From NCBI GenBank assembly GCA_048268245.1, contig JBLWVX010000002.1:32001-96000 (forward strand): a stretch of DNA of 64,000 nucleotides, read 5' to 3'. This DNA comes from Arcobacteraceae bacterium. Its GTDB lineage: Bacteria > Campylobacterota > Campylobacteria > Campylobacterales > Arcobacteraceae. Both the position numbers and the translations under genes were made by a program. Position 1 is the first letter of the stretch, and every line of letters starts with the position of its first letter. Below the pieces are notes generated by a model. That model did not search any database. It was not told the DNA's origin and was given only the letters and a program-made list of their open reading frames with translations. Of the stretch, positions 1 through 26,709 are shown one piece after another.

Positions 1-151
1 AATGACTTATTTTGGTGTAAATTATTATTTAGCGGGAAAACATTCGTATGCAGCAGGAGATCCAATACCAATACCCATATTTATTCCTATAATACTAGTG
101 GTAATAAGTATAGTAATTATGTTTGGATACAAAAATAGAAAGATTTTATAG
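1..151 (+). CDS. ccsA: C-terminal fragment of a system II cytochrome c biogenesis protein (CcsA/CcsBA-like), partial
   Basis: Frame 2 reads MTYFGVNYYLAGKHSYAAGDPIPIP...KIL* (TAG 149-151), matching the conserved FGVNY.L.G.HSY tail of CcsA/CcsBA. Confidence 0.85.
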   Translation, partial: MTYFGVNYYLAGKHSYAAGDPIPIPIFIPIILVVISIVIMFGYKNRKIL

Positions 152-187
152 ATAATAACTAAATTATATATCCATTTAATACATAAA

Positions 188-209
188 AATTACAAATTAA
201 TTACAAATT
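188..209 (+). repeat. Perfect tandem 11-mer AATTACAAATT x2, possible regulator site
   Basis: Seen directly; 11-bp periodicity is typical of OmpR/PhoB-family binding sites. Confidence 0.5.
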
Positions 210-229
210 CTAAAAAATTTTTAATAAAC

Positions 230-249
230 ATAGCATTAGAGTAGCATTT
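230..249 (+). promoter_or_regulatory. Direct-repeat box TAGCATT-N4-TAGCATT
   Basis: ATAGCATTAGAGTAGCATTT; near-identical copy at 26690-26709 (minus strand). Confidence 0.6.
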
Positions 250-261
250 TTATTTTTTTTA

Positions 262-270
262 TGATATAAT
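262..270 (+). promoter_or_regulatory. Extended -10 promoter TGATATAAT
   Basis: Matches the TGnTATAAT sigma70 element of Campylobacterota. Confidence 0.6.
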
Positions 271-277
271 CCTATTC

Positions 278-366
278 ATAAAACAAGAAGTTTTATCTTA
301 ATTATCTCTCCTTAGTTAAAAATTACGTAGCTGTAACAATTTTTTTCGAAGATGAAGCTTCTTTTT
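278..366 (+). ncRNA. Putative small regulatory RNA with anti-Shine-Dalgarno seed
   Basis: Starts 7-8 nt after the -10; 5' hairpin ATAAAAC/GTTTTAT (278-296), unpaired TATCTCTCCTTA (303-314), second imperfect hairpin, then a short GAAG/CTTC stem and U-tract; no ORF. Confidence 0.5.
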
Positions 367-522
367 TATAGACACAATCGAAACAATCAGTTTAATTAAA
401 TTTCCCAAGTTTTATCTTTTTATATATTAAAACCTCTTTTGATAAAACTTGGAATTTTATCCTCAAATAAAAATATCACTTAATAATTATATAATCTTTT
501 TATAATAATAAAAAGAGATTAA

Positions 523-2505
523 ATGATTAAGAATTCACAGTTTAATGAACTAGTAGAAAAAGCTCATTATATCAAAGTTTTATATGCTGAAGATGAACAT
601 CTTACAAGAGATACAATAGAAAACTTACTTAATATTATTTTCCAAGAAGTAATAGTTGCAAAAGACGGAGAAGATGCTTTAAAACTTTTTGAGAAGCATC
701 AAGATATTGACTTACTTATTACAGACATAAATATGCCTAAAATTAATGGTATTCAACTAGTAAAAAAAATAAATCCTGATCTTGCTACTATAATTGTTTC
801 AGCACATTCTGAAAGTAAATTTATGCTTGAAGCAATAAAACTTAATGTTGATAATTTTATATTAAAACCTTTTAAAGCACAACAACTTTTTGAAGTGGTA
901 AAAAAAGCTATTGATAAAACATCTCTAAAAAGACAAAATGAAAGAAATCTACTTATACTTAAACAATATCAAGAAATAACAAATAAAAGCTCTATTATTT
1001 CGAAAACTGATGCATCAGGAGTTATAACATTTGTAAATGAAAACTTTTGTGAAATTTCTGGTTACTCAAAAGAAGAACTTATAGGTAAAAGTCATAATGT
1101 TGTAAGACATCCGGATAATTCAAAAGAACTTTTTAAAGAACTTTGGCACACAATCAAAATAAAAAAAGAGCCATGGAGTGGGATTATAAAAAATCTTGCA
1201 AAAGATGGAAAGAGTTATTTTGTAAAATCAACTATAAAGCCACTTTTAGATCAAAACAATGAAGTTATAGAATACATGGCATTAAGAAATGATGTAACAG
1301 AAATCATGAGTGAGAAAAAACAACTAATTGCTTCTTTAGAATCTTATGAAAACTCTTTTTTAGCACTATTACAAATTGAGAATTTTGATATTTTAGATAA
1401 GTTTTATGATACTGCAACTGTTTATAAAATAGAAGAAGTATTTGAGGATTTAATAATAAGCCTTTTCCCAAAAAATAGTGAGCTATACGAAAAAATCTTT
1501 AAACTAGGTGATGGGCTTTTTGCTATTAGTAATAGTATGAAAAATATTGAAAAACAAAATATAAATATAGAACTTGAACTATTAACACTTATAAAAAACA
1601 CTAAAAATTCAACTATTAAATTTGATAATATTGAATATGATGTATCAATTGCAGTGAGTTATTGTTATGGAAATAAAAATGTATATGAAAATGCAAAATA
1701 TGGAATAGAAAAGGCTTCAGAAGATAATAAAAGCTTAATATTTGCAAATAATTTAGTTGAAGAAGCTCATGAAAGAGCACAAAAAAATATAGAAACAATC
1801 CATATGGTAAAAAAAGCCCTGGATAACTATAATATAGTATCTTACTTTCAACCAATTATTGAAAATAAAACAAAAAAGATTGCTAAATATGAGTCTTTAG
1901 TAAGACTTATTGATGAGAATGGCAAAACAATATCTCCTTACTTTTTCTTAGATGTTTCAAAAAAAGGAACATACTATACAAAAATTACAAATCGAGTAAT
2001 TGAGAGTTCTTTTAAAGTTTTAGACCATATAGAAAATAGTGTAAGTATCAATCTATCTGTTTTAGATATGGAGAATGAGGATATTAAAAATAAACTAATC
2101 GAGCTTACTTCAAGATCTCAATATAAAGGTAGAGTGATTTTTGAGATTCTAGAAAATGAAAATATAAAAGATTTTGATAGAGTGAAAAAATTTATTGCAA
2201 AAGTAAAAAAACTAGGTGATGTAAAAATTGCCATTGATGACTTTGGAAGTGGTTACTCAAACTTTGAGCGACTTTTAGAGTATACACCTGATATTTTAAA
2301 AATTGATGGAAGCCTAATAAAAAATATCGAAACTGATTCATATTGTAGAAATGTAGTAGAAACTATCGTAACTTTTGCAAAAAAACAAAATATTGAAACT
2401 ATTGCAGAGTTTGTGGAAAATGAAAATATTTATAATATATTAAATGAAATGGGGATTACATACTCTCAAGGTTACTACTTTGGTAAACCTGAGAAATTGA
2501 TATAA
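523..2505 (+). CDS. REC-PAS-degenerate GGDEF-EAL c-di-GMP phosphodiesterase response regulator
   Basis: REC (AEDE, LITDINMP, LKP), PAS (IISKTDASG..FVNENFCEISGY), EAL (FQPI, ESLVRL, DDFGSGYSN, QGYYFGKP). Confidence 0.9.
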   Translation: MIKNSQFNELVEKAHYIKVLYAEDEHLTRDTIENLLNIIFQEVIVAKDGEDALKLFEKHQDIDLLITDINMPKINGIQLVKKINPDLATIIVSAHSESKFMLEAIKLNVDNFILKPFKAQQLFEVVKKAIDKTSLKRQNERNLLILKQYQEITNKSSIISKTDASGVITFVNENFCEISGYSKEELIGKSHNVVRHPDNSKELFKELWHTIKIKKEPWSGIIKNLAKDGKSYFVKSTIKPLLDQNNEVIEYMALRNDVTEIMSEKKQLIASLESYENSFLALLQIENFDILDKFYDTATVYKIEEVFEDLIISLFPKNSELYEKIFKLGDGLFAISNSMKNIEKQNINIELELLTLIKNTKNSTIKFDNIEYDVSIAVSYCYGNKNVYENAKYGIEKASEDNKSLIFANNLVEEAHERAQKNIETIHMVKKALDNYNIVSYFQPIIENKTKKIAKYESLVRLIDENGKTISPYFFLDVSKKGTYYTKITNRVIESSFKVLDHIENSVSINLSVLDMENEDIKNKLIELTSRSQYKGRVIFEILENENIKDFDRVKKFIAKVKKLGDVKIAIDDFGSGYSNFERLLEYTPDILKIDGSLIKNIETDSYCRNVVETIVTFAKKQNIETIAEFVENENIYNILNEMGITYSQGYYFGKPEKLI

Positions 2506-22618: not shown

Positions 22619-23580
22619 TATTTCTCTCCTTGGCTTTTATTTGCTTTTTCTTTAATAAATTTAGGCACAATTCCAAATTTAGCTGGCCATACACCATTTG
22701 GTCTTAAAATCATTGTTAATACCATTGCTGCACCAAAGATTAGATATCTAGCTTCATCAAATTCAGTAAATAACTCTGGTAATACAAACATTACAAATGT
22801 TCCTATGATAATACCAGGAAGTGAAGCAGAACCACCCACAAGTACAATAGCAAAGAACATTACAGATTGCATAAAGTTAAATGACTCAGGAGATACAGCT
22901 GAATACTGAATAGCAAACACTGAACCAGCAGCACCTGCAATAGCAGCACCTAAAGCAAAGGCAAATAATTTATAGAATGAAATATTAATTCCCATAGATT
23001 TTGCTGCAATCTCATCTTTATTGATATAGTATAATGCTCTACCAAATGCTGATGTATCTAAGTTTCTAATAATTAATAATGTAATTAAAAGTAAACCAAA
23101 TGCAATATAGTAAATTGCAGTATCAGACCATAACTCATATCCAAATACTCTTACTACATCAATACCAAAAATACCATTTGGACCACCTGTTAAACCAAAA
23201 ATATCATTTGATAAAACTTGTTCAAAAATAATATTAAATCCAATAGTCGCAACTAAAAGGTAATCCCCTCTTAAGTGAATAATTGGACCAGCAAGTAATA
23301 CTGCTACAATCATAGGAAATAAAATTGCAAACGGAATTGTTGCAATAATTTCTAGTCCATAATGTACATTTAAAATAGCTGTTGTATATGCACCAATACC
23401 AAAGAAAATAGCATGACCCATATTGAAAATACCAGCTCTTCCTAAAATAATATCTTGAGAAAAAGCAACAACTGCAAATACTAAAAAAGTAATACCAATT
23501 GATAACCATGCTGAATCAACTAAAAACGGAAAAACTGCCATTATTGCTACAAAGGCAAGTAAAATATTTCTATTAATCAT
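22618..23580 (-). CDS. livM: HAAT ABC transporter permease
   Basis: LRGDYLLVATIGF, LTGGPNGI; multiple TM helices. Confidence 0.9.
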   Translation of the reverse strand: MINRNILLAFVAIMAVFPFLVDSAWLSIGITFLVFAVVAFSQDIILGRAGIFNMGHAIFFGIGAYTTAILNVHYGLEIIATIPFAILFPMIVAVLLAGPIIHLRGDYLLVATIGFNIIFEQVLSNDIFGLTGGPNGIFGIDVVRVFGYELWSDTAIYYIAFGLLLITLLIIRNLDTSAFGRALYYINKDEIAAKSMGINISFYKLFAFALGAAIAGAAGSVFAIQYSAVSPESFNFMQSVMFFAIVLVGGSASLPGIIIGTFVMFVLPELFTEFDEARYLIFGAAMVLTMILRPNGVWPAKFGIVPKFIKEKANKSQGEK

Positions 23581-24497: not shown

Positions 24498-25619
24498 TTA
24501 TTGCCCTACTACTTTGTAAGAACCGTCTTTTTGGATGCTGTAAACCATAAATTTAGCACCAATTCTTTCACCATCATTTCTAAATGTTACAGGTCCTGTA
24601 ATACCTGGGTAATCTTTTAGAGTATGTAAGTAATCTGAAATCTTTTTAGTATCAAAAGATTTTGTTTGCTCAACACCATGCATAATAGCTCTTAATCCAT
24701 CGGCATTTACAACTGCCCAAATTGAAGGTGGCTTCATGTTATAAGTATCTTCATACATACCTAAATATTTTTTAGCCTCTTTGTATGGTAAGATATCTGG
24801 AGTTGGGAAGTTAATAAGTGTAGTTCCCTCTGCTGCTTTTCCTGCAAGTTTTAAGAAATCTGGGTTATCATTTGAATCACCACCGATGAAATCAGCATCA
24901 ATTCCTAACTGTGCTTGTTGAGCTCTTAATAAACCACCATCAGTATAGTAACCTGAATAATAAATAGCATCAGGGTTCATAGCTTTAATTTTAGTAAGCA
25001 TTGCTGTAAAGTTTTGAGTTCCTGATTTGATTTTACCTCTAAATACAACATTTCCACCAAGTTTTTTGATAGAAGCTTCTGTAGCATCACCAAGACCTGT
25101 TGAATATGAAGAATAATCAGATAAAACTACAATATTTTTATATTTTTTTGTATTTACCATATACTCAGCTGTAAAATCACTTTGTGCTGAATTTGGGAAT
25201 GAGTTTCTAAAGAAAGTCCAGTATTTTTTCTTAATTAAATCATCAGATGTACCATCTGAAGTTTGTAATACTTTACTTCTATAATATGTAGTTTGAGCTG
25301 CTTGTGTAGCTCCTGAAGTATAAGATCCAATTACTGCAAATACACCAGCGTTTACTAATTTCTTAGCACAAACAGCTGCTTTTTGAGCTTTTGCTTCATC
25401 ATCACAAGTGATAACTTCAATTTGCTTACCAAGTAATCCGCCTTGCTCATTTTTCTCATTTACAATTAACTTAACAAATTGATCAATTCCTTGACCTTCA
25501 TTTGCATATTTTCCAGTAATTGGAGCTTGTACTCCGATTTTTACAGTATCAGCAGCTACTAGTGAACTTGCAACTACAGCACTTAGTGCTAAAGCACCTG
25601 TTAATTTTTTAAAATTCAT
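24498..25619 (-). CDS. livK: HAAT ABC transporter substrate-binding protein (proline a plausible ligand from context)
   Basis: Signal peptide from ATG 25619 (RBS AAGGAGAG), VKIGVQAPITG, periplasmic binding protein type 1 pattern. Confidence 0.88.
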   Translation of the reverse strand: MNFKKLTGALALSAVVASSLVAADTVKIGVQAPITGKYANEGQGIDQFVKLIVNEKNEQGGLLGKQIEVITCDDEAKAQKAAVCAKKLVNAGVFAVIGSYTSGATQAAQTTYYRSKVLQTSDGTSDDLIKKKYWTFFRNSFPNSAQSDFTAEYMVNTKKYKNIVVLSDYSSYSTGLGDATEASIKKLGGNVVFRGKIKSGTQNFTAMLTKIKAMNPDAIYYSGYYTDGGLLRAQQAQLGIDADFIGGDSNDNPDFLKLAGKAAEGTTLINFPTPDILPYKEAKKYLGMYEDTYNMKPPSIWAVVNADGLRAIMHGVEQTKSFDTKKISDYLHTLKDYPGITGPVTFRNDGERIGAKFMVYSIQKDGSYKVVGQ

Positions 25620-25654
25620 ATATCTCTCCTTAAATTTTTTTAATTTTAACTCTT

Positions 25655-26314
25655 CTAAAAAGTAGGCTCTATAATATAGCAACCCACACACCATTCACCT
25701 ATGTTGTCTATTTTATTAATCTCGCCTCCTTTAAAACTTGATTTTAAATTTTTATGTGAGTAAACAATCTTATCAAATGCTTCAATTATCTCTTCAACTC
25801 TTTTTTCGCTCTTTTTTCTTGCTGTATTTGAAATATCTAAGTAAAATGCAAATACACCATAATCTAAAGTAGAGTCTTCTTTTTTATCTCTTGAAATCAT
25901 CTTACACATTGTTTCAACATCATTTTTATACTCTTCTTGTACGTTTCTTACACCATTTTTTATACTCATAACAACTCTTGAAATTGAGTCATTATCACTT
26001 TTATGCTCAAATCTTTCATCAAGTGTAAGACATATAACATCGGGAGTTAAATAGTGTTCTTTCATAAACTCTCTAAATGCATCTCTTTTAGGTAATGAAC
26101 ATCTTAAAATATCTGCAATAGTTGCATCTATGAAAATCTCTGGTGGATTTTGAAGTTTTGCTATTTCTTGTGATACATGAATTGTAAGAAACTTTGGTGG
26201 AGCATATGATAAGTATAACTCATCAGCTGTCCAAAATGAGTAGTTTTTTTTTGCTTCTTTTATTCCAGTCATCACTGCATCAATAACTTCATTTTTTGAA
26301 GGGAAGTTATTCAT
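25655..26314 (-). CDS. Hypothetical protein, possibly a degenerate PD-(D/E)xK-like fold
   Basis: ATG 26314 with GGAG RBS overlaps the stop of the upstream gene; fold call is by-eye inference. Confidence 0.75.
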   Translation of the reverse strand: MNNFPSKNEVIDAVMTGIKEAKKNYSFWTADELYLSYAPPKFLTIHVSQEIAKLQNPPEIFIDATIADILRCSLPKRDAFREFMKEHYLTPDVICLTLDERFEHKSDNDSISRVVMSIKNGVRNVQEEYKNDVETMCKMISRDKKEDSTLDYGVFAFYLDISNTARKKSEKRVEEIIEAFDKIVYSHKNLKSSFKGGEINKIDNIGEWCVGCYIIEPTF

Positions 26315-26546
26315 TATCATCTCCAACATAGTTTTCATCAACTTCTTGAATTATTCCACTTTCACAAAGAATATCTTCAATCAATCTATTTTTTGAAATA
26401 TTTAAAGACTGACTTAAAACAACTAAAGCATTATCTAGTCTTTTATCAATTTTGATAGTCAACTGAGATATTTCTTTTTTATTACTTTTTAAATGATTAT
26501 TAATAACCTTTTGGATTACTGTTCTTTTATTTTTTTGTTTTGCCAT
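26307..26546 (-). CDS. Ribbon-helix-helix-like DNA-binding protein
   Basis: SQLTIKID beta-strand pattern followed by two helices (KRLDNALVVLSQSLN-ISKNRLIEDIL). Confidence 0.7.
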   Translation of the reverse strand: MAKQKNKRTVIQKVINNHLKSNKKEISQLTIKIDKRLDNALVVLSQSLNISKNRLIEDILCESGIIQEVDENYVGDDNE

Positions 26547-26689: not shown

Positions 26690-26709
26690 AAATGCTATTC
26701 TATTGCTAT
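26690..26709 (-). promoter_or_regulatory. Direct-repeat box TAGCAAT-N4-TAGCATT upstream of the RHH-liv-putA operon
   Basis: Minus strand ATAGCAATAGAATAGCATTT; TATAAT at 26657-26652. Confidence 0.6.

Follow-up and report, generated by a model that had tools for sequence, protein, structure and literature searches.

The intergenic DNA near the start of the stretch analysed here raises the question of whether it specifies a regulatory RNA, and of which messages such an RNA would act upon. The window (the whole stretch of DNA that was analysed, 64,000 nucleotides, nt, with a G+C content of 28.9%) lies on contig C2 of the Arcobacteraceae genome referred to below as G000 (99.3% complete), so that window positions 276-370 correspond to G000:C2:32276-32370. 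A first-pass annotation of the window had proposed an unannotated small RNA (sRNA) at this place, carrying a seed that resembles the anti-Shine-Dalgarno (anti-SD) sequence and is complementary to the ribosome-binding site (RBS) of livK. The comparison of related genomes upheld the proposal of an unannotated sRNA with an anti-SD seed, as the element is a single-copy sequence in four genera with a conserved promoter, an invariant core and a covarying stem. It is very likely a real sRNA gene, free-standing and served by its own predicted promoter; action by anti-SD pairing is likely; and the reading as a whole, i.e., a free-standing, Hfq-independent, trans-acting predicted sRNA encoded at about 277-368 of the + strand, we consider probable.

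Promoter, RNA body and conserved fold

The features of the locus and of the candidate target operon are drawn together in Table 1.

Table 1. Positions of the sRNA element, its neighbourhood and the liv features within the window
Feature	Position	Strand	Remarks
Direct repeat TAGCA-N6-TAGCA (TAGCATTAGAGTAGCA)	231..246	+	putative, and probable, OmpR-type response-regulator binding site; ends 18 nt 5' of the -10 hexamer; 41/41 primary homologs
Extended -10 element TGATATAAT	262..270	+	read from the sequence; TGnTAnAAT-like box at the same spot in relatives
Predicted sRNA body, ~90 nt	~277..368	+	both ends inferred; covariance-model match 276-370, 112.5 bits
7-bp hairpin ATAAAAC/GTTTTAT	278..296	+	present in G000
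P1 closing stem, 5' arm (AAGAAGUUUUAUCUU)	285..299	+	weaker outer extension at 279-283
Seed UUAUCUCUCCUUAGUUAA including anti-SD CUCCUU	302..319	+	unpaired in consensus structure
Invariant core CUCUCCUUAG	306..315	+	within the seed
Inner hairpin P2 (UUAC-GUAGCU-GUAA)	323..336	+	variable, or missing in some genera
Third GTAGC word	327..331	+	same as the promoter-repeat half-site
P1 closing stem, 3' arm (AAGAUGAAGCUUCUU)	349..368	+	runs into the U-run
U-run	362..367	+
Perfect 12-bp stem (CCAAGTTTTATC/GATAAAACTTGG)	404..455	+	loop with AACCUCUUUUG, then AAUUUUAU
Receiver + PAS + EAL gene	523..2505	+	downstream of the sRNA
livG-side RBS AAGGAGAGA	22623..22631	-	9-nt match, weaker candidate
livK RBS + start codon (UAAGGAGAGAUAUAUG)	25617..25632	-	candidate target; 12 bp + G-U
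219-aa ORF	25655..26314	-	livK operon
79-aa ORF	26307..26546	-	livK operon
Second TAGCA-N6-TAGCA site (TAGCAATAGAATAGCA)	26693..26708	-	~1.07 kb upstream of livK, heads the livK operon

The extended -10 element had been placed at the right coordinates by the first-pass annotation, and the alignment of homologs retains a TGnTAnAAT-like box there despite sequence changes. It is preceded by a direct repeat with a period of 11 bp between its half-sites. Repeat and extended -10 occur together at 41/41 primary homologs, with a gap between the repeat and the -10 hexamer of 18 nt in genus g1 (that of G000) and part of g6, 20 nt in g10 and g18, and 10 nt in the rest of g6. A sigma-70 promoter scan did not list the 262-270 box, because the rules of the scan need a -35 match. 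Between the repeat and the -10 box, TTTAAGTTT is conserved in g10 and g18 (L045-L068, L009, L065); g1 has a T-run at that place.

As the first-pass annotation had stated, there is no open reading frame (ORF) here: none of at least 20 amino acids (aa) was found on the + strand at 152-522, the interval that separates the end of the upstream gene (151) from the following start (523), and the homolog alignments held no conserved ORF on either strand. An Rfam 15 cmscan of window positions 1-1200, with E up to 10, returned 6 chance-level matches, none overlapping 262-368.

The fold z-score of 277-368 was -3.77 on the + strand versus -0.73 on the - strand. The minimum-energy fold is one long stem, P1, in which the 5' end pairs with the 3' end, followed by U6; a U-tract ending near 366 had been seen before and is read here as the U-run of Table 1, and the P1 3' arm with this run is a possible weak intrinsic terminator. 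The CU-rich stretch TATCTCTCCTTA (303-314), described as unpaired, was correctly located, and the seed is unpaired in the consensus fold. The 7-bp hairpin, which competes with P1 for the same bases, exists in the G000 sequence but is rejected as a conserved fold: it was 64.1% paired, and 382/500 shuffles were as high or higher.

P1 covariation was scored on a 47-row alignment with 500 shuffles and slid controls; this alignment had been fitted to the covariance model, which favours structure. In the 14-pair helix, 94.9% of cells were paired and 11/14 pairs were compensatory, i.e., changed on both sides (for example AAGAAG.../...CUUCUU versus AGAGAUUUUACC/GGUAAAGUCUCU), values reached by 0/500 shuffles, and the slid controls gave 44-58%. 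The stem covariation looked for at this locus is thus a property of P1 and not of the 278-296 hairpin. About 66 P1 cells are G-U, which on the - strand would be A-C mismatches, and the + strand is therefore the RNA strand. The conservation expected of the seed was borne out across the family, with CUCUCCUUAG and CTCTCCTTAG in 41/41 homologs (37 distinct sequences), and TATCTCTCCTTAGT and UAUCUCUCCUUAGU each in 36/41.

Conservation might instead act at the level of DNA or of the - strand. CTCTCCTTAG would then be an operator bound by protein, or else a small ORF on the - strand would use the complement AAGGAGAG as its RBS. The complement is indeed a perfect SD, and a third GTAGC word stands 3' of the seed in 27/41 homologs. 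We give this explanation very little credence, since the 9 aligned genomes have no conserved start codon or ORF beyond the - strand SD, the covarying stem is rich in pairs that the - strand could not form, the - strand folds no better than shuffles, and both the promoter and the T-rich end face in the direction of the + strand. The GTAGC word of the transcribed body, which occupies the loop of the inner hairpin in g1 and g6, might act in the DNA as an operator half-site, or in the transcript as an RNA motif.

Distribution and genomic context

A BLAST-type search of 41 related genomes found the element in all five same-genus genomes, and counterparts of 70-74% identity in three further genera; the similarity in G004 and G005 stops at about window 370-377, the proposed 3' end, before the next gene. 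A covariance model built from nine sequences was searched over 151 family genomes and gave a single match in each of 41 genomes plus one weak match (42/151 in all): 5/5 in g1, 11/11 in g6, 22/22 in g10, 2/2 in g18 and one weak match in g15, with none in 17 other genera of the family. The g15 match (G019, E 0.004) was treated as false because both the seed core (CUCC) and the transcription-factor site of the promoter are missing. Divergent copies hidden in sRNA-less genomes were also looked for and rejected, as the model stayed silent at E up to 1 in 5 such genomes; an 11-nt seed pattern gave one match in total across the same five, which was not convincing.

An exact scan for the promoter motif followed by the seed core, with one genome per species over 185,579 species, returned 41 stretches. 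By record title these were Aliarcobacter (18), Arcobacter (8), Poseidonibacter (4), Arcobacteraceae (2), Campylobacterales/Campylobacterota (6) and bins of metagenome-assembled genomes with other labels (3); 38 titles therefore agree with the family assumed by the first-pass annotation. The last (L318, L319, L325) hold the element on 9-23 kb contigs of bins titled "bacterium", "Candidatus Paceibacteria" and "Candidatus Omnitrophota"; in each case the contig is probably DNA of Arcobacteraceae assigned to the wrong bin.

The flanking genes vary between genera. A membrane protein gene lies upstream and a response-regulator/PAS/EAL gene downstream in g1; a small secreted protein gene lies upstream in G010, G014 and G022, with different downstream genes that are convergent in G014 and G022.

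Five g6 genomes carry a second, weaker RNA copy 130-230 nt upstream on the same strand, with the seed CCCCUCCUU and its own promoter (L037:1730-1815(-), L039:1720-1806(-), L042:1684-1767(-), L043:1291-1376(+), L044:1685-1767(-)). That promoter differs, being without TAGCA-N6-TAGCA and having a conserved TTGATTTAT.TCATTAA stretch, and the copy looks like a differently regulated sibling sRNA.

In a g10 subgroup the RNA appears to extend about 90 nt past the closing stem, where a conserved AAGGUCGUUCU motif, a hairpin and a GC-rich terminator with a T-run follow one another. The loci concerned (L056, L052, L054, L058, L062-L064, L066-L068, L050, L055) share within this extension a conserved AAGGTCGTTCT motif followed by a TTAAGTTT/AAACTTAA hairpin; the extension may form a second functional module of the RNA.

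The gene downstream of the sRNA in the window encodes a receiver + PAS + EAL protein with no GGDEF match (Pfam, E 1e-5), a probable cyclic di-GMP phosphodiesterase-type response regulator by its domains. The perfect 12-bp stem of Table 1 sits between the sRNA and this gene, outside the conserved core (the G004/G005 homology ends before it); it might be a terminator of read-through transcripts, or part of the downstream leader. A similar response-regulator gene of the PAS-HD type, on contig C12, has its own TAGCA-N6-TAGCA site.

Predicted pairing with livK and the liv operon

We examined if the livK message is a plausible target. The first-pass annotation had noted that the seed 12-mer lies on the + strand at 25621-25632, and this was verified: it stands directly 5' of the reverse-complement ATG (25617-25619) of livK, whose 373-aa product matches Peripla_BP_6 and the branched-chain amino-acid binding-protein subfamily. 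The shorter livG match was likewise found where it had been reported, as AAGGAGAGA on the - strand. When the initiation regions of G000 (2673, from 2674 crude gene calls) were ranked by duplex energy with the loop, livK ranked 10/2673 at -18.3 kcal/mol (mean -7.6, sd 2.8), the livG-side RBS ranked 25 at -16.3 kcal/mol, and four liv-operon initiation regions fell within the top 100 predicted targets.

Orthologs of livK were sought in 67 other genomes. Contiguous complementarity of at least 10 nt was kept in 15/17 sRNA-bearing genomes with an ortholog (G000 included) versus 0/6 sRNA-less genomes; here, as wherever sRNA-bearing and sRNA-less genomes are compared below, the counts come from related genomes, are not independent, and are confounded by shared descent. 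The longest matches in g1 were 12 nt in G000, G001 and G002, 11 nt in G003 and 9 nt in G004; in g6, 12 nt each in G063 and G108 and 11 nt in G115; in g10, 13 nt each in G145 and G166; and in g18, 7 nt in G057. Two pairing registers occur among the relatives, UAAGGAGAGAUA(A) and AACUAAGGAGA, the second accounting for matches of 11 nt each in the g6 genomes G010, G078, G100, G046, G090 and G131. This shift of register in g6 keeps the pairing and changes both flanks, which is what selection for pairing would produce. The six sRNA-less orthologs comprise five with a bare SD of at most 7 nt and one with 9 nt; among them, LivK of G017 shares 89% identity with the G000 protein, more than the g6 proteins do, and its gene has only a 7-nt SD. 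No livK ortholog was found in G005, G121 and G126 (the last two only 88% and 85% complete), and G022 has only a distant paralog. On this evidence the chances that livK is a direct target, where it is present, stand about even. The earlier proposal of livK thus draws its support from retention of the match in relatives, and draws none from G000 taken alone, where the match was not above chance (see below).

Other candidate targets

Exact RBS matches of at least 11 nt were found in ten G000 genes: those for an SDR protein, an amino-acid ABC permease, an SBP_bac_3 protein, SoxA, LivK, an AgcS alanine symporter, ProX, a DsbA-like protein, a DUF485 protein and a PRK08636-type aminotransferase. By a post hoc count, 6/10 belong to amino-acid transport or metabolism. 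The aminotransferase RBS, ACUAAGGAG, was matched over at least 9 nt in 14/16 sRNA-bearing versus 1/12 sRNA-less genomes, a difference confounded by descent; G008 was left out of this count because its aminotransferase locus lies at a contig end, and G019 was set aside as uncertain. A PrpC-like citrate synthase gene carries AACUAAGGAGA(GA) in G014, G139, G050 and G128 (15 nt in G128), i.e., in 4/5 g10 genomes examined; the match is missing in G145 and in other genera. A gene for a 180-aa protein, putatively isochorismatase-like as labelled from its sequence, has matches of 14 nt (G050) and 11 nt (G022).

The permease match was kept in 5/6 sRNA-bearing genomes, and was rejected as discriminating evidence for the reason given in the next section. 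AgcS was rejected as a conserved target, with 12 nt in G001 and 5-8 nt in G010, G063, G078 and G024. A search for the AAGGAGAGAT pattern in five other genomes gave mostly intragenic matches, and 0/7 of those in G014 (sRNA gene excluded) lay at an RBS.

The mode of action that we propose is as follows. As the comparison of homologs shows, the long stem joins the 5' and 3' ends of the RNA and closes a large loop that displays the invariant UUAUCUCUCCUUAGU. This loop would imitate the 3' end of 16S rRNA, and would pair with the SD region of selected mRNAs and with a few bases that flank it. Pairing would block binding of the 30S subunit, so that translation would be repressed and the mRNA probably destabilised, without Hfq. 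The likely target, wherever present, would be livK and possibly further liv-operon cistrons; other candidates would be the PRK08636-type aminotransferase and, in g10, the PrpC-like citrate synthase.

Contrary findings and alternative explanations

Besides the shared descent of the genomes compared, a number of findings count against this interpretation, some concerning the RNA itself and others its targets. A terminator scan called no terminator at the 3' end of the element, because its rules need at least 3 GC pairs. Single-sequence minimum-energy folds leave the core at least 80% unpaired in just 23/41 homologs. The public sequencing runs comprised 11 metagenome runs, as contigs only, one of them on record as RNA; four of them, aligned to the region, gave patchy cover, in which gaps carry no meaning, and one contig from an RNA library spans 268-492, across the proposed 3' end. 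Such a contig fits read-through or DNA carry-over, contigs showing neither expression nor transcript ends nor strand. It would also fit a cis-acting leader (a 5' untranslated region, riboswitch-like or an attenuator) of the response-regulator/PAS/EAL gene, which has the same orientation, begins 155 nt downstream of the element and belongs to a family found downstream in G000-G005. This we regard as very improbable: the downstream gene is different or convergent in G010, G014 and G022, the G004/G005 homology stops near window 370-377, the g10 subgroup ends in its own GC-rich terminator, and there is no downstream SD that the anti-SD could sequester in a conserved manner.

With regard to targets, chance matching was measured with 1000 seeds in which the CTCCTT core was kept and the flanks were shuffled, compared with the 18-nt seed over the 2673 initiation regions. 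Observed matches of at least 9, 10, 11 and 12 nt numbered 36, 15, 9 and 4, versus shuffled means of 45, 16.5, 6.0 and 1.65, and the observed count was reached by 12% of shuffled seeds for at least 12 nt and by 21% for at least 11 nt. A genome-wide excess of seed matches in G000 is thereby rejected, and the livK match is therefore what any anti-SD seed would yield somewhere; the caution attached to the original proposal, that anti-SD seeds match many mRNAs by chance, was justified. The livK RBS match is only 7 nt in G057 and only 9 nt in G004. An ortholog is present in just 2/22 g10 genomes, and livK therefore cannot be the sole or universal target, nor explain the invariance of the seed in g10. 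The aminotransferase and permease matches overlap the last codons of upstream ORFs; the permease site encodes the end of the upstream ORF and is identical in sRNA-less G021. AgcS pairing is confined to g1. In general the candidate targets differ from genus to genus: the seed stays constant, while its targets seem to be replaced from one genus to the next.

It is accordingly possible, although we think it rather unlikely, that the sRNA is real and acts by its anti-SD seed and that livK is not its physiological target, the aminotransferase, PrpC-like or other mRNAs being regulated instead and the livK match reflecting shared ancestry of a strong RBS. The chance-level count of extended matches would agree with this, as would the 20/22 g10 genomes in which livK is missing while the seed stays invariant, the distribution of ACUAAGGAG between sRNA-bearing and sRNA-less genomes, and the PrpC-like AACUAAGGAGA within g10. 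It is opposed by the retention of at least 10 nt of livK pairing in 15/17 genomes of three genera, by the g6 subclade that moved to another register instead of losing pairing, by the 7-nt SD of the closest sRNA-less ortholog, and by the four liv-operon initiation regions in the top 100. Our preferred reading keeps livK among the candidate targets where it occurs.

A probable TAGCA-N6-TAGCA regulon

The repeat ahead of the sRNA recurs elsewhere, with 13 copies in G000, 11 of them intergenic (intergenic DNA is roughly 10% of the genome). Counts of the motif versus its reversed pattern were 7, 14 and 17 versus 0, 0 and 1 in three sRNA-bearing genomes, and 10, 18, 25, 11 and 10 versus 0, 2, 1, 0 and 5 in five sRNA-less genomes. 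This is very probably a real regulator site. Most sites point away from the adjoining gene; the sRNA and liv sites point with it.

The genes beside the G000 sites encode DUF4212 + sodium:solute symporter, a DUF294 protein and an RNase_T exonuclease; two pairs of DUF485 + symporter (ActP-like), pta-ackA and a lactate permease; and an SBP_bac_3 + permeases operon (including the candidate-target permease), the response-regulator-PAS-HD gene, a BioF-like gene and the livK operon. In the last, the site is followed by the 79-aa ORF, the 219-aa ORF and livK; neither ORF has a Pfam match, and the initiation region of the 219-aa ORF ranks 68/2673 for seed pairing. In G010, G017, G021, G007 and G024, too, livK is preceded by a site at a distance of about 1.07-1.10 kb. 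Likewise, pta and symporters recur beside sites in G014, G022 and G010, and lactate permease in G022 and G010.

A gene cluster at C1:34812-51605 of G000, outside the window, is punctuated by four of these sites. Its order is a Cache histidine kinase, an OmpR-type regulator, DUF4212 + symporter + DUF294 + RNase_T, the two DUF485 + ActP-like symporter pairs, a second DUF294 + exonuclease pair and pta-ackA; the cluster resembles a regulon for the uptake and metabolism of monocarboxylates.

The Cache histidine kinase and OmpR-type regulator (Response_reg + Trans_reg_C) genes immediately adjoin a site in G000, G010 and G014, the regulator being 91% identical to that of G000 in G010 and 84% in G014. 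The same layout of kinase, regulator and site occurs in all five sRNA-less genomes examined (8 genomes in total), at 78-87% identity and with 80-100 nt from gene to site. This regulator is a candidate binder of the repeat, with odds that we would put at evens. We infer that the regulon predates the sRNA, which would have joined it in four genera.

The overlap between regulon and predicted targets was also scored. The operons beside the 11 intergenic sites hold 46 genes, of which 4 rank among the best 25 predicted targets (hypergeometric p 7.5e-4) and 8 among the best 100 (p 2.3e-4); the test was post hoc, used crude gene calls and drew 5/8 top-100 genes from the liv operon.

The sRNA would be made when the two-component system is active. 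Its promoter shares the motif with the liv, aap-like, actP, lactate-permease and pta-ackA operons, and we therefore regard the sRNA as the probable post-transcriptional arm of a regulon for carboxylate and amino-acid uptake. Because liv carries the same regulator site as the sRNA, the two would form a feed-forward loop on liv. Put at its broadest, the Cache kinase, OmpR-type regulator and TAGCA-N6-TAGCA sites may constitute a family-wide carboxylate-sensing regulon with the sRNA as its post-transcriptional arm: the regulator would drive operons for the uptake of acetate, lactate and amino acids and, along with them, an anti-SD sRNA repressing the mRNAs of amino-acid transporters and aminotransferases, four genera having added the sRNA gene to an older regulon. 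We offer this wider scheme tentatively, and regard it as doubtful in its full form.

Relation to known systems

The first-pass annotation drew an analogy with RBS-pairing sRNAs, and this holds as a working model when drawn with AbcR and sRNAs of the CJnc190 type. Searches of G000 for Hfq gave no PF17209 match; the same search detected Hfq in 5/14 named control genomes.

As described in passages of PMC3712013, AbcR1/AbcR2 of the Rhizobiales (Sinorhizobium, Agrobacterium, Brucella) use an anti-SD motif that pairs with the SD of ABC-transporter mRNAs, including livK, so that translation is blocked, and they are Hfq-dependent. The sRNA proposed here is like AbcR in being trans-acting, with anti-SD pairing proposed for livK, and in having tandem sibling copies, here in g6; the likeness is mechanistic and not one of homology. 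Unlike AbcR, it belongs to a genome in which no Hfq was found, it has no sequence or Rfam relation to AbcR, its scaffold is one long closing stem, and seed and phylum differ.

Closer in phylogeny are CJnc190 of Campylobacter jejuni and RepG of Helicobacter pylori, which, according to passages of PMC8687705, act without Hfq or ProQ through a C/U-rich loop that pairs with a G-rich RBS or leader and represses translation; C. jejuni is there described as being without both proteins. A C/U-rich loop, a host among the Campylobacterota and an Hfq-free model are shared with the present element. The Rfam scan detected no homology to either. Unlike CJnc190, which is matured by RNase III from an antisense pair, the gene here stands alone; and unlike these target-specific binders of G-repeats, it has a near-canonical anti-SD seed with A/U-rich flanks.

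GcvB is a proposed global repressor of amino-acid and peptide transporter mRNAs, livK and livJ among them; it is under GcvA control and employs a G/U-rich seed that recognises C/A-rich enhancers and not the SD. The abstract of PMC4474525 describes GcvB of the Enterobacteria as Hfq-dependent and as acting on ABC-transporter mRNAs. The present sRNA is like GcvB in the proposed repression of amino-acid transporter mRNAs, and unlike it in that no Rfam match was obtained.

For the regulon, the likeness is to the CrbS/CrbR (MxtR/ErdR) acetate regulon of the gamma-proteobacteria Vibrio and Pseudomonas, for which passages of PMC5715377 describe two-component control of acs and DUF485-actP through a shared promoter motif. 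The gene content of the TAGCA-N6-TAGCA regulon is similar. CrbS/R uses an imperfect inverted repeat and an SLC5-fused kinase (CrbS), unlike the direct repeat, Cache kinase and OmpR-type regulator found here, and those passages mention no sRNA member.

Full-text literature searches (Arcobacter or butzleri with small RNA or transcription start sites) found no description of an Arcobacteraceae sRNA. An intergenic-region survey of Arcobacter sp. L by the GC-IGR approach (PMC6429828) lists 14 intergenic motifs (table S1d), none in this context, although an unnamed motif could overlap in principle. The sRNA family is very probably previously undescribed; the type of mechanism is already known.

Significance

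The family supplies an invariant seed, a covarying scaffold, a conserved regulator site and a short list of nutrient-uptake targets, in a group that includes emerging food- and water-borne species as well as abundant wastewater and marine bacteria. It offers an entry point to Hfq-independent riboregulation beyond Campylobacter and Helicobacter, and points to an undescribed shared control of acetate, lactate and amino-acid uptake. If the wider scheme were true, it would represent an RNA-based carbon-source hierarchy, or catabolite control, in bacteria without Hfq, Crc or CRP-type systems.

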